Origin: Thermodesulfobacteriota bacterium
GTDB lineage: Bacteria; Desulfobacterota; Desulfarculia; JACQYL01
Direction of reading: 5' to 3'
Length of the DNA stretch: 64,000 bases
Assembly: GCA_963675595.2 (NCBI GenBank)
Contig: CAXXLZ010000002.1
Span: forward strand, 2,784,001-2,848,000
Positions 32,296 to 55,864 of this stretch are shown here, in pieces. Within the stretch, counting starts at the first letter, position 1, and each line of letters begins with the position of its first letter. Under the pieces are notes generated by a model. That model saw only the letters and a list, made by a program, of their open reading frames with translations. It was not told the DNA's origin and did not search any database. Made by a program: the position numbers and the translations under genes.

Positions 32296-33054
32296 CTATC
32301 GTGCCTGAAGTTCCGGATGGGATTCCAAATTCAGCACCACCACATGGACTTTGCCCGTGTCCTCTTCCACGAGCTGGAGCCTGAGCAGTCGAGCCGTGGG
32401 AGTCTCCCCGGGGAAGAACAGAAAGCCGTGCGCCAGCGTCTTGGGCTCCACCGGCACGTTCTGAAGGCTCTTGTCTCTCAAGTCTGAAATGATTTCCCTC
32501 CGAGCGTCCCCGGAGCCATAGCCTTGCGCCCCTCCAATGACCGCTCCGGCGGCGGCTCCGACCGCAGCGCCCTTGCCCAATGCGGCGGCGACATTACTCC
32601 CGCCCACGATGCCGATGGCGGCTCCCACTATGGCACCGGCGGCCGCTCCAAGAAGGCCGCGATAAGCTCCTTCCTTGACCACGTCCTCGGCACTCGCATG
32701 CTTGGTCGCCCGATCATAGGCCATGTCCCTGGACAAGACGGCCCATAGGTTCCCCTGCTCGTCTTCCAAAAAAGTCTGGGCTCCGTTAATCTTGAGGGGA
32801 TGACTCCCCCGGTTGTTGAAAACCACCTGCACGGGAAGCATGCCCGCGCCGCGGATATCGAAACCGAAGGCATCTTGGGCTTCCTTGGGATCCGCATACG
32901 CTTGGGCCGCCACCATGGCGCCGCCCACCTCCACAACGTTGGCATAGGACTCCGGACTCCTGAAAGGCAACGGTTTGGCTTTGTAGGCCGTGGAGCAACC
33001 GACCAACAACAACACGGCCAGGATCAGGAGCGGCACTCGCATAATCCGGTTCAT
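32296..33054 (-). CDS. Lipoprotein with glycine-zipper domain
   Basis: Lipobox LLVGC; GAAAGAIVGAAIG..GAAVGAAAGAVIGG; RBS GGAGGA. Confidence 0.8.
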   Translation of the reverse strand: MNRIMRVPLLILAVLLLVGCSTAYKAKPLPFRSPESYANVVEVGGAMVAAQAYADPKEAQDAFGFDIRGAGMLPVQVVFNNRGSHPLKINGAQTFLEDEQGNLWAVLSRDMAYDRATKHASAEDVVKEGAYRGLLGAAAGAIVGAAIGIVGGSNVAAALGKGAAVGAAAGAVIGGAQGYGSGDARREIISDLRDKSLQNVPVEPKTLAHGFLFFPGETPTARLLRLQLVEEDTGKVHVVVLNLESHPELQAR

Positions 33055-33448
33055 GAAGCAATCCTCCCCTTGGGTTCCTCGGCTCGAATTTTCAGTGGTC
33101 GAGCCGGAGTTGTCGACCGGAATACAACAGCAGGGCAACGAACCGCACCGTTGCATCCTATTTTGAACAGACCGCCTCCCGGCCAAAGCCGTTTAGACGG
33201 GATTCCGATCTGCTCATTCAAACGTACTCCGGACGGGAATTCAAGGCCTTGCCGTACCGGACCGGGAGCGTCGTTTCCTTGATTTTGTTTGACATGCCGG
33301 GGCTGTTTTGTTACCCACTAGAGATCGAATTAACCCATGGACGAAGGCGGTATGGAATCGAGTTTGGCTCAGGACCCATTCCCTGATCATAGTCGTCGAA
33401 ACGGCTCGCGCACCAACTCCTTCATGCTTGACGGGCAGGGCAGAGGCA

Positions 33449-34819
33449 ATGAACGAGAGAGGCTATCAATTGCTCCAAGACACTGTGGAGCGACTTCTGC
33501 GCCGTCATGCCACGAAGAACCTGACCAAGATACTTAATAAGACCCATCCCGCCGATATCGCACATCTTTTTAGACTCCTCAACGACAGATCCGCCCGCCA
33601 ACTTTTCGAAATCCTCCCGGAAGTCGAAAGCGCACCCTTGATTCTCTCCGAAATGGAGCCTAGAGTTCGCATCGATTTCTTTCATTTCGTGGATCTGAAA
33701 CGCGCCGCGGAGATCCTCTCCGACATGGCTTACGACGATGCGGCCGACCTTCTCGGTGATCTGCCTCAGGAACTCCGCGATCAGATTCTCGCTCTGATGC
33801 CGGACAAGGACACCGAGGAAGTAGCCGAACTCCTCAGCTATCCCGAGGACACGGCCGGCCGGATCATGACCACGGACTTCCTCAACGTCCCCGAAACCAT
33901 GGTGGCGCACGAAGCGGTCCACGAAGTGCGTAAGGCGGCGGAACGAGAGAACGTGTTCTATTTGTACGTCACGGACGGCCAAAAAAGACTGGTGGGCGTC
34001 CTTTCCTTGCGGCAGTTGGTCACCGCACCCGACGACACGCCCATGTCCGGCCTCATGACCAGAGACGTGGTCAAGGTGCGGGTGGACACGGACCAGGAAG
34101 AGGTTGCGCGGATGGTTTCCCGCTACGATCTGCTGGCCGTGCCCGTGGTGGATCACGCGGACGTCCTGGTGGGAATCGTTACGGTGGACGACGTCATCGA
34201 CGTTCTCAAAGAAGAAGCCACCGAAGACATGCTGAAACTCGCCGGTACGTCCGAAGAGGAAATCAGTTCATTCTCCGCGGCGCGAAGCGCAAAGGTTCGT
34301 TCGCCTTGGTTGCTCATCGCATGGATCGAGGGCGTCATCGCGGTCAACATCATCGGGGCCTTCGAGGTTCAATTCAATGCCCATCTACAGTTGTTCGCGG
34401 CTTTGGCCGCCTTTATTCCCATCATCAATGGAATGGGTGGAAACATCGGCACGCAAAGCCTGTCCATCACGCTCCGAGGGCTGGCCACGCACCGCATAGA
34501 CCCGAAACATCTTTGGAGGGTGTTAAGCAAAGAAGTGAGGGTGGGGTTGATGCTGGGGATCGCTTACGGGTGCCTGCTGGGAGTGGTGGGATATTTTCTC
34601 AAGCAGGACGTCATGCTGGGCGTCGTCGTGGGCATCGCCATGTGTACCAACATGACCATTGCGGCATTGGTCGGCACGTTTCTTCCGATTTTGGCGGTCA
34701 AGCTGAAAATCGATCCCGCTGTTGCGTCGGGGCCGTTTATCACGACCAGTATGGATATCCTGGGCGTATCTCTGTATTTTTTTACCGCTTATTTCCTGAT
34801 TGTCCGTCTAGCCCAATGA
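33449..34819 (+). CDS. mgtE: Magnesium transporter MgtE
   Basis: HPADIA, YPEDTAGRIMT, CBS pair, GGNIGTQS, DPAVASGPFITTSMD. Confidence 0.95.
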   Translation: MNERGYQLLQDTVERLLRRHATKNLTKILNKTHPADIAHLFRLLNDRSARQLFEILPEVESAPLILSEMEPRVRIDFFHFVDLKRAAEILSDMAYDDAADLLGDLPQELRDQILALMPDKDTEEVAELLSYPEDTAGRIMTTDFLNVPETMVAHEAVHEVRKAAERENVFYLYVTDGQKRLVGVLSLRQLVTAPDDTPMSGLMTRDVVKVRVDTDQEEVARMVSRYDLLAVPVVDHADVLVGIVTVDDVIDVLKEEATEDMLKLAGTSEEEISSFSAARSAKVRSPWLLIAWIEGVIAVNIIGAFEVQFNAHLQLFAALAAFIPIINGMGGNIGTQSLSITLRGLATHRIDPKHLWRVLSKEVRVGLMLGIAYGCLLGVVGYFLKQDVMLGVVVGIAMCTNMTIAALVGTFLPILAVKLKIDPAVASGPFITTSMDILGVSLYFFTAYFLIVRLAQ

Positions 34820-34846
34820 AAGCGTCGGGCCGTGCTGCGGACGGCC

Positions 34847-35275
34847 TTATTCCTCCGGCGGTTTTTCATAGGGAAAGGGCTCGTCGTAACTCCCCGCCGC
34901 ATTTAGGTCGTCTTCATCCATTGAATCCGTGAGCATGTGGCAAAACCCGTCCAGCAGTCCCCCCAAAGCGATGGAGACGCTCCGCGCTTCCACGTTTCCT
35001 CGAATCCTGCCCGTTGCCCCGACGTTCAGTTGTTCGTAGGCGACGATGTTTCCCTTTACGGATCCGTTGACCATCACCTGGTTCGACACGATGTCCGCTT
35101 CGACCCGGCTTTCCTTGCCCAGGATCACCTGGCCCTTGCTTTCCACTTTGCCCTTGATGTTTCCCTGCACAAGCATACTGTTGTTCAGGAGGATGATCCC
35201 CTCGAACACACAATCCGATCCAATGACCGTTTCTATCTTTTCGTTGTCGACGGACCGCTTTTCCTGTTTCTTCAT
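34847..35275 (-). CDS. Bactofilin (polymer-forming cytoskeletal protein, CcmA family)
   Basis: ETVIGSDCVFEG..VQGNIKGKV..VNGSVKGNI..IRGNV..GGLLDGFCHM beta-helix repeats. Confidence 0.9.
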   Translation of the reverse strand: MKKQEKRSVDNEKIETVIGSDCVFEGIILLNNSMLVQGNIKGKVESKGQVILGKESRVEADIVSNQVMVNGSVKGNIVAYEQLNVGATGRIRGNVEARSVSIALGGLLDGFCHMLTDSMDEDDLNAAGSYDEPFPYEKPPEE

Positions 35276-35304
35276 GCCTTAAGCCCGCAGAGACCTGTGA
35301 AGGG

Positions 35305-36405
35305 TCAGACGCTGAAAGGCCCGAACGCGTTTTCCTCGGACATGGCGGCGATGAGGGCGCCCTTCACGGTACTCGTCAATGGGTCGTCGGCCTTCCGTAC
35401 TTCCGAAATCCGTATGGGCAAACTGTATTCACTGAGTACTTTTTCGAAGGCGTCTCGAAAGCCGTTGGGACACACCGTTCCTCCCGCCAATACCATGGGC
35501 AAGGCGCTCAGGGAAGGAGGCATTTTCTTCTCTTCCTTGAGATGGGCTTCAATGTTGCTCGCCAAATGATGCATCACTTCATTGTAGAAAATGTGGAGCG
35601 CGTTTTCGATGCGGCTGCGCGGACTCCTGCCCAAATCGCACTCGTTTTCCTTGGCCAGACGAACGTCCGTGGGGTTCATATTGAGCACCGTGGCCGCCGA
35701 ATGATCGATATAATCCCCCGCCTTGGGAACCGAAAAAGAGAAAATGGGAAGAGACATGTAGGACAGGCAGACGTTGCACATACCCCCGCCGATGCTGACT
35801 CCGATCCCCGTAAAATTGTTGTCCGAAAGCTCGGAAAGAATCACGGCGTGGCCCTCATTGATCACCTTGACTTGGTACCCCATGGACATCAGGAAATTCC
35901 TGAAGATCGCCTCATGATATACCAGCCGCTCGGCTCCGTTTCTTGGAGCGGCGGGGATGCTCAGACACAGGGATTCACCCAAAGTGGCGGGGCGCTGTAT
36001 CAGGGTTTGAATGATCCGCTCGATCACTTTCTGCCCCAAGTCTTCGGCCGCGTTCAACAAACCGTGTCGCATGGGTCTGCGGGTTTCGGCCATGAACATG
36101 ACGGAGAACTTTTCGGCCGCGTTGCCCATGATATACATCTGGTTCCCGTCGGCGAAATAGTCCACGCGGTTCTTGTCCAGAATATCCAGGGCGAATTGGA
36201 CGTAAGGAACCGTGAAGAAAGCATTGAGCTGCCGTTTGGTCTCGATAACTTCGCCCTTCTTCTGACACATGACGATATAGCACGTGCCGATATCCAGACC
36301 CACGGGGCCCGTGGGACCCTCAGGCTTCTCATCAACGGCCTTCTCGGTGCTGACGATTGTCGCTTCAGACACGTTCATCGCTGTTTCTCTAAGGTCTTCG
36401 GTCAT
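35305..36405 (-). CDS. Actin-fold ATPase, volactin (VolA)-like
   Basis: Actin motifs GLDIGT, INEGHAV, SIGGGMCNV, LAGGT and GALIAA. ETRRPMRHG and ELSDNNFTGIG match recalled haloarchaeal volactin segments. RBS GGGAGG. Confidence 0.8.
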   Translation of the reverse strand: MTEDLRETAMNVSEATIVSTEKAVDEKPEGPTGPVGLDIGTCYIVMCQKKGEVIETKRQLNAFFTVPYVQFALDILDKNRVDYFADGNQMYIMGNAAEKFSVMFMAETRRPMRHGLLNAAEDLGQKVIERIIQTLIQRPATLGESLCLSIPAAPRNGAERLVYHEAIFRNFLMSMGYQVKVINEGHAVILSELSDNNFTGIGVSIGGGMCNVCLSYMSLPIFSFSVPKAGDYIDHSAATVLNMNPTDVRLAKENECDLGRSPRSRIENALHIFYNEVMHHLASNIEAHLKEEKKMPPSLSALPMVLAGGTVCPNGFRDAFEKVLSEYSLPIRISEVRKADDPLTSTVKGALIAAMSEENAFGPFSV

Positions 36406-36508
36406 CGGACCCTCCCCTTCCCCTCATCGAGTCTCATGATTCGGTCGCCGCCTGGTCGGACCATTAGCTTTGCCTCTCCGATATAACCGACTGGTAACCA
36501 TCGATCCG

Positions 36509-37888
36509 TTATCTGCACGCGGCCAGTTCTTCTTCCTTTTCCCGAAGGCTCTTGGACAGCGAGCCGTACTGCAAATTCCACCGCGCCAGTTCTTCACTCT
36601 GTCTTTGCTTCTCGAGTTCGAGCCTTTCCGCCAGTTTTTCCTTCGCTTCCACCGCCCGAATGATTTCTTCTTCCACGTTTCGAAGCCTGATCTCGAGCGC
36701 GCGGTTCACCCTCACCAACTTTGCGGCCCGGTTTCGCCACTCGGCCGCCTTGGCGTAGATCTCCACCTCGGTCAACTCCCGGGTCAAATCATCGGCCGAG
36801 ATTTCCGGCATCTCCTCCAATCCCTTGACCCCCTTAAACTCTTCCACCTGTTCCGCAAGGGATCGGTTCTCCTCGATCAAACGCTCCTGTTCCGTCCGCG
36901 CTGCATCGAAACGAGACCGGAGGCTTTCACATTCCGCCTCGACGCTCAGTAACCTTGCCAGACATTGGTCCTTGATCGAAGTCTCCTGCGACAGCCGTAA
37001 GCGCAGGGAGCTCACATCTTCAAGGCTCTCGGCATGCTCCTGTTCCAGCGTCTGCAATCGTGCGCCGAGATCAATACTTTCCGATTGGAATCGTTCGAGA
37101 TCGGCCGACATCCGAGACACTCGTTGCTCCGCCTCGGCGGATTCATTTTGAGCCCGAGAAAGTTCTTGAGCAAGCCGGTCCCGTTCCTCGGACAGCTCGG
37201 AAACTTGGGAATTGAGAACGTCGTTTTCTTCCCGATACAAGAGGCAATCCTCGGCGGCCCGTTTGCCGGCTTCCGCCTCCTCCGCCACCTTCTCATTCAA
37301 ATATTGGATTTGCTGCTCGGCCTCGGCAAGGTGTTTCAGAGCCCGAACAAGTCGTTCCTCTTCGGATTCGGAAACCTCCGCCGGATTCTCCTGCTGCGAG
37401 GTCAGTCGTTGGTACTGATCTTTGGCTCTTTCGATCTTTTCGGCGTCGGTCAATCGCTCCTTGGCCGGTTCGTGGGCAAGACCGGCGATGCCCTCCTTGT
37501 GCTTTTCCTTGAGCTGGCCAAACAGCTTGACGCCGCCCTTCACCACCTCGATAAAAGTCGAATTGGTCAACGGTTCCGTGAGGTAACGATGGATATGGCC
37601 TTCGTTCATCGCTTCGGAAACTCGGAGGTTGAGAGAGGGCGTGATCAGGATACGGACCACCCAGGGGCGGAGGTCTTTGAGCGATGCAAATAGTTCGGAC
37701 CAGGGAAGCCCGGGGAGATCGGCGTCGGCAATCACCACCTGAACATCGGATTTTTCTATCAGCTCGATGACTTTTGAGGCATCCTTGGCCGTGAAAACAT
37801 CGAAAACTGCTGGAAGGGCGTTGGCCAAAGTTTTCGCCATTCCCGGATTCCTGTGCGCTATGACGACGCGTGGTCTTCGGATGTCCAT
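36509..37888 (-). CDS. Atypical receiver domain plus long coiled-coil protein
   Basis: N-terminal ~125 aa REC fold (VVIADADLPG, RILIT, RYLTEP) followed by ~300 aa of E/R/L/Q-rich heptad sequence. Confidence 0.8.
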   Translation of the reverse strand: MDIRRPRVVIAHRNPGMAKTLANALPAVFDVFTAKDASKVIELIEKSDVQVVIADADLPGLPWSELFASLKDLRPWVVRILITPSLNLRVSEAMNEGHIHRYLTEPLTNSTFIEVVKGGVKLFGQLKEKHKEGIAGLAHEPAKERLTDAEKIERAKDQYQRLTSQQENPAEVSESEEERLVRALKHLAEAEQQIQYLNEKVAEEAEAGKRAAEDCLLYREENDVLNSQVSELSEERDRLAQELSRAQNESAEAEQRVSRMSADLERFQSESIDLGARLQTLEQEHAESLEDVSSLRLRLSQETSIKDQCLARLLSVEAECESLRSRFDAARTEQERLIEENRSLAEQVEEFKGVKGLEEMPEISADDLTRELTEVEIYAKAAEWRNRAAKLVRVNRALEIRLRNVEEEIIRAVEAKEKLAERLELEKQRQSEELARWNLQYGSLSKSLREKEEELAACR

Positions 37889-38205
37889 GGGTTGTCCTCT
37901 ATCATCGGTCTTTCCGCCGGGCGTTTCCGTTCAGGGCGGGCTCGGCGAACACCCCGGGAGCCGGGACTTGTTGGAACAACTTGGCGGCCTTCGCCGGTGA
38001 AGCGGTAATCGGGGCCACCGGTCCGGGCCCCGGATGCCGTCCTTACGACCCCTGCTCTTCACTTGAGCCAGCCGGTCTTGAAGCGGTCGTGACCCCGAAT
38101 TGTGAATCGTCAGGGCAAGAACGGTCGGGTTTTCAGCACCGATGTGCATATCACGACGGTCTATTCAAGTCAACTCCCTATTCTCACTGAATTTATCAGC
38201 GGAAC

Positions 38206-39540
38206 TCATCCCCCTTCCACCATCAGGACGATCTTGTCCACCACCTCTTCGGGATTTTCCCCGCAAACGATCATTTGAGGCTCCAGCGCGAATCCCCCCT
38301 CGTGCCGGAGAATGTCCGGCGGGATGTCGCTCACGGCGGGCGAAAACTTGATCTCCAAAGCCCCACCCGAGCCCCGAGCCTCCGTCCATTGGATCCCGTG
38401 GACGGACAGCCCCTCCTTCTCCGCCCTCTCCACGAACCCGTCAACGAGCTTGAGGTTGATCGCGGCTCGAATGGTGGGGAACAAAGCGGTCATTGCCGGG
38501 AGCAGATTCCCCATAAAAGGCGAAACTCCGAAGTCCGGTGGGCTGAACGCGCTGATTCCGTCATAGTACCGGACGATCCCTCCGGGAAAAGACGCCGTCT
38601 CCCCGACACTTGCAGCGCGAGGCAATGCATAGACCAGATCGGCGGGAACATTTGGAAGGAGATAAGTGGGTTTCAAATCCTCCAGGGTCCCAAGGGCTTC
38701 CTCCAGCTTCTCCACCATGATCCGTCTTTCGCGTTCCAGAGCGAGCTGAGCGAAATGATTGGTGGGGCCGTGGCCATGACCCAGGGGTAAAGCGTGCCGG
38801 ATCGCCAAATCAATAAAGGATCTGGCTTGCCGCACGGCCTCGGGTACCGAATGCCCGCAACCCAGTCCTGCCGCTATGGCTGCTGAAAACGTACACCCGG
38901 TGCCGTGGGTGTGAGGGGTATCGTACCGGACCGCCTCGAAATCAAGGAAATCCCGTCCGTCGTAAAGCATATCCACCGGAGAGCGAGGCATGTGCCCTCC
39001 CTTGACCACCACGTTTTCAGCCCCGAGCCCATGAATGATTCGGGCCGCTTCCTGCATGTCCCCTCGATCGGAAATCTCAAGCCCCGCAAGGATTTCCGCT
39101 TCCGGCACGTTGGGAGTCACCACGCGGGACAAAGGAATCAGCGCCTTCCTTACAGCCTCACGCGCCTCGGCAAGCAATAGAGCGTCTCCGCTTTTCGCGA
39201 CCATTACCGGGTCCACAACCAGGTTACGGATCCCGTGTTCCTTCACCTTGTCCGCAACCAGTTCGACAATGTCGGCACTGAGCAGCATCCCCGTTTTAGC
39301 TGCATCGACACCAATGTCTTCGGCTACCGCGTCGATCTGCAACGCAATGAAATCCAGCGGGACCTCGTGGATACCCTTCACCGCCGTGGTGTTTTGGGCG
39401 GTCAACGCGGTCAGTACGCTCATGCCGAAACCACCCAGCACGGTGATGGTCTTCAAGTCGGCTTGAATTCCCGCGCCTCCACCCGAATCGGACCCGGCGA
39501 TTGTCAAGATTCTTGGAATGGTCCGGTCTTCTCCGATCAT
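38206..39540 (-). CDS. thiD: Hydroxymethylpyrimidine/phosphomethylpyrimidine kinase with a C-terminal ThiN-like domain
   Basis: IAGSDSGGGAGIQADLKT, DPVMVAKSG, THGTGCT; ~175-aa C-terminal extension with ThiN-like pattern. Confidence 0.92.
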   Translation of the reverse strand: MIGEDRTIPRILTIAGSDSGGGAGIQADLKTITVLGGFGMSVLTALTAQNTTAVKGIHEVPLDFIALQIDAVAEDIGVDAAKTGMLLSADIVELVADKVKEHGIRNLVVDPVMVAKSGDALLLAEAREAVRKALIPLSRVVTPNVPEAEILAGLEISDRGDMQEAARIIHGLGAENVVVKGGHMPRSPVDMLYDGRDFLDFEAVRYDTPHTHGTGCTFSAAIAAGLGCGHSVPEAVRQARSFIDLAIRHALPLGHGHGPTNHFAQLALERERRIMVEKLEEALGTLEDLKPTYLLPNVPADLVYALPRAASVGETASFPGGIVRYYDGISAFSPPDFGVSPFMGNLLPAMTALFPTIRAAINLKLVDGFVERAEKEGLSVHGIQWTEARGSGGALEIKFSPAVSDIPPDILRHEGGFALEPQMIVCGENPEEVVDKIVLMVEGG

Positions 39541-44344: not shown

Positions 44345-45751
44345 TTATTGTTTGTAGGTTTCTTTCGACAACCTGTAGAGCTTCATCTTGTTGTAAAGGG
44401 TCTTCTCGTCGATCCCCGCTCTTTCCGAGGTCCGGCGTATGTTGCCCGAGAACTCCTTGAGCAACGCCGCGAGGTACGCGGTTTCCAATTCCTGAACAAG
44501 CCGGTCCCTCAGCTCCCTCAAGGGGGCCTTGGTGTCCAACTGCCAATCCCCCGCCATGCCGCTCTGATACGAAGGCAGCTCCACGTCCGTGATTTCAGAC
44601 CCTCTGGTCATGATCACGGCCCGTTCTACGATGTTTTCCAGTTCCCGAACGTTTCCCGGCCAGAAATATCCCTCAAGTTTGTGCAGAACCTCGTCGCTGA
44701 TGGCATCCACCGGGCGTTTGAATCTCTCGGCATACTTCGCCAGAAAGTGATTCGCCAGCAGTGGAATGTCTTCTTTCCGCTCTCTCAAGGGCGGCAGAAT
44801 GATGGGGATGACGTTGAGTCGATAGTACAGGTCCTGACGGAAACGCCCTTCCTGCATTTCCTTTTCCATATCGCGATTGGTGGCGGAGATGATCCGGACA
44901 TCCACTTCGGTTAGTCTCTCACCGCCGACCCGCTCGAACGCCTTCTCCTGGATAACCCGAAGGAGCTTCTGCTGTACGGCGTGACTGGTGTTCCCGATCT
45001 CGTCCAGAAAGAGGGTCCCGCCGTGAGCCCGCTCGAACCGGCCGTGCTTCCTCGAAACCGCCCCGGTGAAGGCTCCCTTTTCGTGACCGAACAGCTCGCT
45101 CTCCAGCAGTGTTTCCGGCACGGCGGCGCAGTCCAGAGCGACGAAAGGCCCTTCTTTTCTCACGCTGTTGAAATGAATGGTTCTGGCCAGTTGCTCCTTG
45201 CCGGTACCCGTCTCTCCGGTAATGAGCACGGAAGAGTCCACATCCTGGATGGTACGAACCAACTGGAAGATCTTCTGCATGGCGGGACTCCGCCCGATCA
45301 TGCCGGAAAAAGACACGTAACGGTCTTCCAACAGGCCCTGCAATTCCTGATAACGAGCCGCGAGAGAAGCGTTTTCCGAACGAAGGGCGAGAGTCTCCTC
45401 TATTTTTTTCAACGTAATCTTGATATGCGGGAAATTGAGGGGCTTGAGAAAGAAGTCATAAGCGCCGGCCTTCATCACTTCGACGGCGGATTCAACCGTA
45501 CCGTAAGCCGTGATGACCAGCACTTCGGTTTCCGGATGCCCCGCTTTGACCTGTTTCACGACCTCCGCTCCGGACAGGCCCGGCATCATCAGGTCGGTTA
45601 CGACGATCTCGAAAGGACGCTCTTTGAGAAGATCGAGACCCTCCTGTCCGCTTGAGGCTGTTTCCACCGTATAGCCCCATTTTGAGAGCCTCATGCGCAT
45701 CAATTCCAGGATGAAGTGCTCATCGTCGATGACAAGAATGCTTAGAGACAC
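44345..45751 (-). CDS. sigma54-dependent response regulator (NtrC/AtoC family)
   Basis: REC (IDDE, TDLMMP), [33 protein letters not shown], Fis-type HTH. Confidence 0.95.
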
Positions 45752-55715: not shown

Positions 55716-55848
55716 GGGACGTCAACTTAATACAATATGGTATCACTGTAAAGAGGGAGCACATAAATGTATCAACAAGAGTGCCACGCCTCATGCCAGA
55801 TCCCACCCAAGCCATTGATAATATGATACTTATTACATTCCCCGCTCA

Positions 55849-55864
55849 TGGCACACCATTTGCT
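55849..55864 (+). promoter_or_regulatory. sigma54 (-24/-12) promoter upstream of the glutamate synthase genes
   Basis: TGGCAC-ACCAT-TTGCT, an exact consensus with correct spacing. Confidence 0.8.

Follow-up and report, generated by a model that had tools for sequence, protein, structure and literature searches.

A volactin-family actin clustered with a pseudo-receiver protein and a bactofilin in Thermodesulfobacteriota points to a possible, undescribed kind of bacterial cell-shaping machinery

Modules made of a bactofilin and an M23 peptidase are a recognised means by which bacteria sculpt stalks, buds and curvature. According to the accessible part of PMC10945521, LmdC-type M23 enzymes are DD-endopeptidases composed of a short cytoplasmic tail, a transmembrane segment, a coiled coil and the M23 domain; the bactofilin recruits them via the cytoplasmic tail to shape such structures, and bactofilin and M23 genes are adjacent in 226 species. 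The present study concerns a cluster of three genes in a 64,000-nucleotide stretch of a Thermodesulfobacteriota genome (contig CAXXLZ010000002.1, positions 2,784,001 to 2,848,000; hereafter the window). The genes encode a pseudo-receiver/coiled-coil protein (P0001, hereafter the adaptor, after its proposed role), an actin-fold protein of the Volactin family (P0002) and a bactofilin (P0003) (table 1). Our proposal, held with a probability of about 0.5, is that these genes make up the actin half of a morphogenetic system that is rare, confined to one lineage and based on the bactofilin/LmdC wall-remodelling module. The gene content points to a putative kind of bacterial cell-shaping machinery that has not been described.

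To our knowledge, volactin has so far been an archaeal story, and no bacterial homologue is the subject of any of the listed titles of papers that mention it. In the accessible part of PMC10869688, volactin of Haloferax volcanii (VolA, HVO_2015; UniProt D4GU28 according to PMC12050087) is reported to form filaments that are dynamic, show a ParM-like instability and extend across the cytoplasm, and to be required for the transition from rods to disks. Volactin and halofilins, i.e. a volactin-family actin and bactofilin-type polymers, take part in the shape transitions of one Haloferax cell, but the accessible text of PMC11459167 does not state that they are genetically linked or cooperate directly, whereas the corresponding genes form one cluster here. 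An actin-bactofilin link has also been sought experimentally in Chlamydia trachomatis, with a negative outcome: BacA and MreB did not co-localise and showed no two-hybrid interaction (bioRxiv 10.1101/2020.10.19.346502, accessible part). The parts of the present cluster all belong to known families (Volactin, bactofilin, the receiver fold and, in the relatives, M23/LmdC), and their combination is not described in the searchable literature. The preliminary description of this DNA knew of no such system in bacteria, which agrees with our finding no published actin/bactofilin/pseudo-receiver cluster in the literature on volactin or bactofilins; the supplements of PMC10869688 and PMC10945521 may bear on this.

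Relatives of the actin were scanned in one genome per species, which gave 447 stretches; of these, the 80 best were retrieved, each together with flanks of at most 8 kb. Open reading frames (ORFs) in the fetched loci were called by a longest-ORF heuristic, and bactofilin and M23 genes were detected with hidden Markov models (HMMs) built from six and five sequences, respectively. The bactofilin model was sensitive enough to find the distant bactofilin of genome G030 at 78 bits. The census excludes the database actins P0005 to P0012 (54–57% identical), which were not placed on contigs.

A neighbourhood of adaptor and bactofilin was found in the four closest of the 80 loci, namely L002 (73% actin identity) and L003 to L005 (54–56%), which are recorded as uncultured delta proteobacterium or Syntrophobacteraceae. 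A fifth related locus, L099, lies on a metagenome contig that was found with an adaptor alignment, and was the one locus confirmed among 34 pattern matches. Together with the window, the gene order adaptor-actin-bactofilin is kept in all six loci of this actin subclade, with the adaptor gene directly upstream of the actin gene each time, and the order is conserved down to adaptor identities of 23–30%. No flanking gene beyond those of the cluster was common to the six loci; a suspected recurrence of FeoB-like genes near the clusters was rejected, as no flanking families are shared. The gene set is beyond what chance would produce, as judged from the E-values and from its recurrence in five other loci with unrelated flanks, and the three genes can be regarded as a conserved unit, which is also collinear on the contig of a second strain.

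In each of the five other loci (L002, L003, L004, L005 and L099) a gene for an M23 peptidase lies between actin and bactofilin. Packing is tight in L002: the M23 gene shares 8 bp with the end of the actin gene, and 14 bp separate it from the bactofilin gene; the M23 product matched Pfam Peptidase_M23 with 112.7 bits. All seven M23 proteins examined carry the HxxxD and HxH motifs, an N-terminal transmembrane-like segment and a cytoplasmic K-[IV]-T-[LV] motif, and those of the five loci also have a coiled coil. By these sequence features, which agree with the published plan of LmdC, the M23 proteins of these loci are classed as LmdC-type membrane/coiled-coil peptidoglycan endopeptidases. The preliminary description had suggested a dedicated system for shape, polarity or positioning, and the M23 gene in 5 of 5 relatives makes a role in shape much more concrete.

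The cluster is rare, restricted to one clade and found mostly in metagenome-assembled genomes. None of the other 76 fetched loci (43–49% actin identity) had the adaptor and bactofilin neighbourhood; at least 3 kb of sequence was present downstream in 61 of these, upstream in 60 and on both sides in 53. They belong mostly to Desulfurivibrio or Desulfobulbia, with some from Acidobacteria and Nitrospirae. The search across bacterial volactin-like actins that had been suggested as a check therefore gave a divided answer, as the neighbourhood is conserved in the actin's own subclade (6/6) and absent from the remaining fetched loci (0/76). When 83 volactin-like proteins were placed in a tree, the actins of the six cluster loci were set apart on one side of a branch with a support of 96.9 in the Shimodaira-Hasegawa-like approximate likelihood ratio test, and the cluster association therefore looks like a single origin. 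Volactin exceeded its Pfam cut-off in 3 of 61 class-level relatives; in an even sample of 401 genomes of the phylum, which contains the present one, it did so in 11. Eight of the ten other volactin-positive genomes of the phylum encode a bactofilin, which is adjacent to the volactin gene in none; the two genes are 6.4 kb apart on one contig in G165, with opposite-strand genes between them.

The genome analysed here departs from the four-gene arrangement. A genome search with the L002 peptidase detected an M23 protein of 360 amino acids (aa) and 46% identity, encoded on another contig (G000:C1, around 1.12 Mb; hereafter C1). A second bactofilin gene directly follows it, and no actin or receiver gene stands beside the pair, so that bactofilin-M23 adjacency is absent from the window and present on C1. 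In the tree of M23 proteins the C1 peptidase groups with that of G002, a genome of the same family (97/96), and both are sister to the L002 peptidase (98/98); this pattern fits vertical descent and a split in the present lineage. In the bactofilin tree the C1 copy likewise groups with that of G002 (87/93), and the window copy stands next to that of L002, without resolution and on a long branch. G002 has the M23-bactofilin pair only, and no volactin gene, and each of the four genomes with the four-gene operon has exactly one bactofilin, the operon copy.

The simplest history that we infer from these trees is a four-gene ancestor followed by duplication of the bactofilin and a split in this lineage, in which the peptidase-bound bactofilin would have stayed membrane-competent and the actin-linked copy would have diverged. 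The system had been introduced as a three-component one; three genes are indeed present here, but the usual form has four genes and this genome carries the split form. In comparison with BacA-LmdC of Hyphomonas neptunium and Rhodospirillum rubrum, the relatives and C1 share the adjacent genes for a bactofilin and a bitopic M23 protein. The relatives differ in that the module is extended upstream by the actin and the pseudo-receiver, nothing alike being described in the accessible part of PMC10945521, and the window differs in having no peptidase gene and a bactofilin without the hydrophobic N-terminal motif. Directly upstream of the C1 pair a 1185-aa ORF was also seen (L088:9711-13268, minus strand of G000:C1), with an extended series of near-identical repeats of ~40 aa that look TPR-like by eye.

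The actin P0002 matched Pfam Volactin (PF25216) with 263.5 bits (E 4.3e-78; cut-off 35 bits) over positions 3–321 of the 321-position profile, and among 14 control genomes this family exceeded its cut-off in Haloferax volcanii alone. The AlphaFold2 (AF2) model (mean predicted local distance difference test, pLDDT, 81.9; predicted template-modelling score, pTM, 0.84) has an actin fold. Foldseek returned MreB, MamK, BeeR and actin at a probability of 1.00, the nearest being MreB (4czl, E 1.3e-12), MamK (5ljv, TMt 0.71) and BeeR (8r2n), with template-modelling (TM) scores of 0.57–0.71, E-values of 1e-12 to 1e-10 and 12–18% identity. At the sequence level the profile of the volactin-like family reached MamK as the sole family in the PDB (E 8.6e-6), and P0002 itself stayed below the cut-offs of Pfam MreB_Mbl (22 bits against 27) and NCBIfam MamK (34 bits against 400). 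The best structural neighbours are bacterial actins, from which P0002 differs by its low identity, by the absence of an mreCD or mam context and by a phosphate-2 motif with Ser and Asn in place of two acidic residues.

When aligned to MamK, P0002 has canonical phosphate-1 (GLDIGT), connect-1 (E184-G185), adenosine (G308-G309) and connect-2 (G349) motifs. Its phosphate-2 motif reads S204-x-G-G-G-M-C-N211, in which Ser replaces the usual Asp (D-x-G-G-G-T-T-D/E); in 20 aligned family members G206 to N211 do not vary, and at least 90% of the sequences keep S204. Of the earlier claim of an actin-fold ATPase with all five actin motifs, the fold and four motifs hold, and the fifth lacks its Asp. A 34-residue acidic N-terminal extension, conserved in the family and lying outside the Pfam model, is predicted to form a helix and a strand. 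P0002 is the only volactin-family copy in the genome, and is an additional actin, since the true MreB is encoded by a separate gene (506 bits) a megabase away.

Compared by Pfam family and description, P0002 is like Haloferax volactin in being a full-length member of the Pfam family that was founded on the archaeal protein, with an actin fold like that of MreB, and in being an extra actin tied to shape (for P0002, a proposal) that is distinct from the rod-shape MreB; the archaeal side of this likeness is taken from the accessible part of PMC10869688. It differs in having a bacterial host with a peptidoglycan wall, in its linkage to genes for a bactofilin, an M23 peptidase and a pseudo-receiver, and in the N-terminal extension.

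These data suggest how the system might work. In its ancestral and usual form, a single operon would supply the pseudo-receiver/coiled-coil protein, the volactin-family actin, the bitopic M23 endopeptidase and the bactofilin. The bactofilin would form a nucleotide-independent scaffold at the membrane that holds the endopeptidase via the short cytoplasmic tail of the enzyme, after the manner of BacA-LmdC. The actin would contribute a filament with nucleotide-driven dynamics, by which this scaffold is positioned, shifted or switched, and the pseudo-receiver protein, without being phosphorylated, may connect the two polymers as an adaptor or a ruler. The result would be local cleavage of peptidoglycan, leading to an altered cell shape or size, with actin and adaptor as a presumed add-on that positions or switches the wall-cutting bactofilin/LmdC scaffold. 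In the present genome the endopeptidase and the motif-bearing bactofilin would act from C1, and the window would provide pseudo-receiver, actin and a fast-evolving bactofilin paralogue, which probably either joins the actin/adaptor pair in the cytoplasm or assembles together with the C1 bactofilin.

A composite cytoskeleton in the full sense, in which a volactin-type filament is physically coupled through the adaptor to a bactofilin scaffold and so steers an LmdC-type endopeptidase in space or time, is possible but doubtful. It would be the first case of actin-bactofilin cooperation; we know of no precedent for such cooperation in a direct form. If true, the system would be a walled-cell counterpart of the haloarchaeal volactin/halofilin shape switch, and the split in this genome would show a bactofilin subfunctionalising into a membrane- and peptidase-bound paralogue and an actin-bound one.

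The window bactofilin is central to any link with the wall. P0003 matched Pfam Bactofilin (PF04519) with 80.4 bits (cut-off 27.9) over residues 16–112 and positions 1–97 of the 98-position profile, in agreement with the earlier assignment of this gene. It is 54% identical to the operon bactofilin of L002 and 39% identical to the second bactofilin of its own genome on C1. Its N-terminus reads MKKQEKRS, without a hydrophobic membrane-targeting motif, and its tail has a net charge of -10 over the last 35 aa. The seven M23-linked bactofilins (7/7) begin M-x-(K)-L-[FL], a start reminiscent of the membrane-targeting peptide in the accessible part of PMC12448750, where N-terminal MFSK-type peptides of bactofilins bind membrane, F2 is critical and the global consensus is MFSKKKK. 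From sequence, the missing 'LF' of P0003 suggests a loss of membrane binding.

Several points weigh against the cluster being the actin half of a wall-remodelling system. The conservation does not amount to six independent events, since the six loci and the one strain are mutually related. As the peptidase lies outside the cluster in this genome, the cluster is linked to the wall only by descent and through a distant locus. The window bactofilin, lacking the hydrophobic N-terminal motif, may have abandoned a role in wall remodelling. The N-terminal motifs of bactofilins from Thermodesulfobacteriota frequently depart from the global consensus (eLife 2025, accessible part), which makes a loss of membrane binding a tentative reading of the missing 'LF'. 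Finally, the phosphate-2 Asp is Ser throughout the family, and both ATPase activity and polymerisation of P0002 are assumed from the family founder.

The alternative that survives best, though we consider it unlikely, is a wall-independent scaffold for positioning or polarity, in which three cytoplasmic filament proteins place a cargo such as a chromosome region, a complex or an inclusion, the link to the M23 peptidase having been abandoned. BacNOP-PadC-ParAB of Myxococcus and MamK are positioning systems to which it can be likened. Such a scaffold would account for the missing peptidase gene and for the N-terminus of P0003, and no transmembrane segment was found in the three window proteins, either by reading the sequences or in the models. 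Two further observations fit, namely the MamK match as the best PDB sequence match of the family profile, and a second bacterial volactin-like clade (8 loci) whose linked gene encodes a MinD/ParA-type ATPase, as is typical of positioning systems. Haloferax volactin filaments, too, span the cytoplasm, with membrane contact confined to their tips (PMC10869688, accessible part). However, the peptidase lies inside the operon in 5 of 5 relatives, and the locus showed neither a cargo nor a mam gene, no adaptor that carries a DNA-binding domain and no iterated repeats of a centromere-like kind.

The conservation of the reading frames bears on a second alternative, which we regard as improbable: that the genes have no joint function here, being either the leftover of a four-gene operon nearing loss or merely adjacent. 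Several findings are in line with such decay or chance. G002 has retained the M23-bactofilin pair alone, the low frequency of volactin (3/61 related and 11/401 phylum genomes) implies that it is often lost or rarely gained, and the window bactofilin sits on a long branch. In addition, the database record P0125 (407 aa, from another assembly), which is 93% identical to P0001, begins inside the receiver, with its first ~20 residues unlike those of the window protein; either a frameshift or faulty gene calling in that record might explain this start.

Against this, all three window frames are intact, and the gene order outlasts the divergence of the adaptors to 23–30% identity. Contigs of a second study cover positions 33800–38600 of the window in one collinear piece of 98.3% identity, with 83–84 differing letters and no indels inside genes, the adaptor gene included. 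Among the strain differences analysed (40 listed of 91), those in the actin gene were all synonymous third-position changes (14/14), those in the bactofilin gene fell at third positions in 7 of 8 cases, with one amino-acid change, in the tail, and the two in the adaptor gene were both non-synonymous. Given this pattern and the lack of indels, the frames are real and under purifying selection, which is strongest on the actin.

The adaptor P0001 begins with a receiver domain that had been described as atypical. It scored 30.0 bits against Pfam Response_reg (PF00072; residues 9–116), 0.2 short of the cut-off of 30.2; phmmer matched it to receiver domains among PDB chains, the best being HupR (2jk1, E 2e-11), and a precomputed table assigns PF00072 to the orthologues P0126 and P0127. 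The AF2 model shows the (beta-alpha)5 receiver fold at residues 7–136 (pLDDT about 90), followed by a disordered linker (135–172) and helices at 174–353 and 374–458. The coiled-coil part thus has about 265 helical residues, slightly less than the ~300 aa first estimated. In the phmmer alignment to solved receivers the acidic pair is replaced by H12-R13 and the conserved Lys by E105, with D55 and T83 retained, so that P0001 lacks the complete phosphorylation quintet of response-regulator receivers.

Across the six orthologues the Mg-binding acidic pair and the Lys are lost in all; the phospho-acceptor Asp is present in two (window and L002) and replaced by Ser or Thr in the other four, and the Thr position is kept in two. 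The receiver of P0001 is a pseudo-receiver. Since these residues are lost and no kinase gene was found among the flanking ORFs scanned, the signal-responsive character attributed to the system in the preliminary description is not supported. Residues H12 and E105-P106-L107 are invariant in the six orthologues, and I377 and W384 in a five-sequence alignment, where they belong to a conserved helix, EIY-KAAEW (residues 376–384). Total length ranges from 380 to 639 aa, the coiled-coil part being variable and the ends conserved. At least three homologous proteins were found in protein databases at E <= 1e-10, a lower bound because the search scored the 8000 candidates sharing most words. Complex prediction for the actin with adaptor residues 340–459 gave a score of 0.00 against a mark of 0.32, with controls that did not fold, and is no evidence either way.

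Loss of phosphorylation residues is also a feature of FrzS of Myxococcus xanthus, which resembles P0001, in architecture only, as a pseudo-receiver with a long C-terminal coiled coil; AglZ of Myxococcus is reportedly built on the same plan. The adaptor could on this basis be the main actor of a FrzS/AglZ-like regulator of polarity or surface motility, using the actin as AglZ complexes use MreB, but we hold this to be quite improbable. The receiver of FrzS binds a partner and its coil localises the protein (bioRxiv 10.1101/2024.03.11.584430, accessible part), a division of labour that would suit P0001. No specific sequence relationship was detected, however: none of the 12 PDB receiver matches (E <= 0.01) was a FrzS chain, the nearest being HupR and receivers of HD-domain response regulators. 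In addition, no motility, pilus, gliding, MglA or Frz genes occur in the flanks scanned, and the constant partners are actin, M23 peptidase and bactofilin, as opposed to SgmX, MglA and pili for FrzS.

The three genes are co-oriented on the minus strand, with the spacers of 103 and 29 bp that had been reported before (table 1).

Table 1. Features of the actin-bactofilin cluster and its intergenic regions (positions in the window).
Feature	Position	Strand	Evidence or remark
Pseudo-receiver/coiled-coil protein, 459 aa (P0001)	36509..37888	-	Pfam, PDB matches, AF2
Volactin-family actin-fold protein (predicted ATPase), 366 aa (P0002)	35305..36405	-	Pfam, AF2, Foldseek
Bactofilin paralogue, 142 aa (P0003)	34847..35275	-	Pfam
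Intergenic stretch 5' of the first gene, 317 bp, below the ThiD/ThiN stop; presumed promoter region	37889..38205	-	
Adaptor-actin spacer, 103 bp, with a purine-rich ribosome-binding stretch ahead of the actin start codon	36406..36508	-	
Actin-bactofilin spacer, 29 bp	35276..35304	-	holds the predicted LmdC-type M23 gene in 5/5 related loci

Within the longer spacer the stretch GGGGAAGGGGAGGG ends 5 nt from the actin ATG, and the actin start codon is right, since the N-terminus agrees with that of L002. RNA folding of this spacer showed nothing unusual (z +1.34; shuffled versions folded equally well or better in 181 of 200 cases). In the shorter spacer AAGG lies 3 nt before the bactofilin ATG; the frame cannot begin earlier, since a TAA stop in the same frame lies 6 nt ahead of this start codon. 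The intergenic stretch ahead of the adaptor gene is the sole long non-coding gap on the 5' side of the cluster. A scan of 34400–38400 for sigma-70 and terminator consensus sites gave counts not above those of shuffled sequence, and none in this gap; by eye, a weak candidate TTGACT-17-TATGCA can be seen at ~38173–38145 on the minus strand. The sigma-54 promoter consensus is TGGCAC-N5-TTGC, and matches to this pattern numbered 46 across the window, where 53 were expected, with none of them upstream of the cluster. Elsewhere in the window the only perfect sigma-54 consensus lies at 55849–55863 (plus strand), with a one-mismatch site on the other strand at 55772–55786; a gene for a sigma-54 activator is found at 44345–45751.

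Ten flanking ORFs were scanned (29.5–45.8 kb), which include genes for ThiD/ThiN and for an acetyl-CoA hydrolase/transferase (both upstream and co-oriented with the cluster, beyond the 317-bp gap), MgtE (downstream, convergent), a permease and the sigma-54 activator. In agreement with the preliminary description, no mre, fts, par or mam genes were found among them. For none of the three cluster proteins did an NCBIfam model exceed its own cut-off or a PADLOC defence model match at E <= 0.01; iterated repeats were not found, the only repeats being short two-copy ones, none of which is intergenic by its coordinates. A ParM-type cassette for segregation or maintenance of a mobile element, or an anti-phage system with an actin-fold ATPase, might be suggested by the small partner genes and actin-fold ATPases typical of type II partition loci and by ParM lower in the Foldseek list (TM about 0.5), but is very improbable given the chromosomal setting amid Mg-transport, thiamine and acetyl-CoA genes, the lack of a DNA-binding domain and iterated repeats as in ParMRC, the PADLOC result and the absence of integrase or transposase genes among the flanking ORFs. 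A 296-aa ORF at 32296–33186 (minus strand), between the MgtE gene and a small helix-turn-helix-like ORF, had no Pfam match at E <= 0.001.

Other neighbourhoods were noticed among the fetched volactin-like loci. In one group of eight loci (L012:9197-10563, L059:5221-6578, L054:2791-4260, L063, L065 and L076:9100-10463, L077:9081-10574 and L057:2753-3652), whose actins form one group in the tree, a protein of ~145–175 aa (175 aa in L054) follows the actin on the same strand in seven loci, and a MinD/ParA-type ATPase of ~300 aa is encoded second downstream in seven (CbiA, 63.8 bits for L077). Six loci show both; L065 ends before the ATPase and L057 shows the ATPase only. The ~145-aa protein looks receiver-like by eye, which is not established (hhalign probability 0.4%, E 0.14; Pfam Response_reg E 0.044 in 2 of 7).

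Most volactin-like genes of the Desulfobulbia type look solo. About 51 of the 80 loci have a divergent gene of ~1250 aa upstream of the volactin-like gene (e.g. L007:3896-7732), and 28 of the 80 have a convergent gene of ~860 aa downstream, with a Cys-rich motif at its start (e.g. L007:9131-11770). In L095:8250-11829 (G030:C49), from the same class, a 143-aa fragment that matches FeoB_N and FeoB_C comes after the volactin-like gene; about 1.3 kb past this fragment lies another actin gene, which is MreB-like (MreB_Mbl, 61.6 bits), and the bactofilin of this genome is on another contig.

Taken together, the gene arrangement reported in the preliminary description is confirmed, and its interpretation is partly supported. 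Roughly 450 bacterial species genomes encode volactin-like proteins, all of them annotated as 'hypothetical' where named, and the conserved operon would give these proteins their first functional context in bacteria. It would also provide the first genetic evidence that a non-MreB actin homologue feeds into the placement of peptidoglycan hydrolases, and a set of four proteins small enough for heterologous reconstitution.

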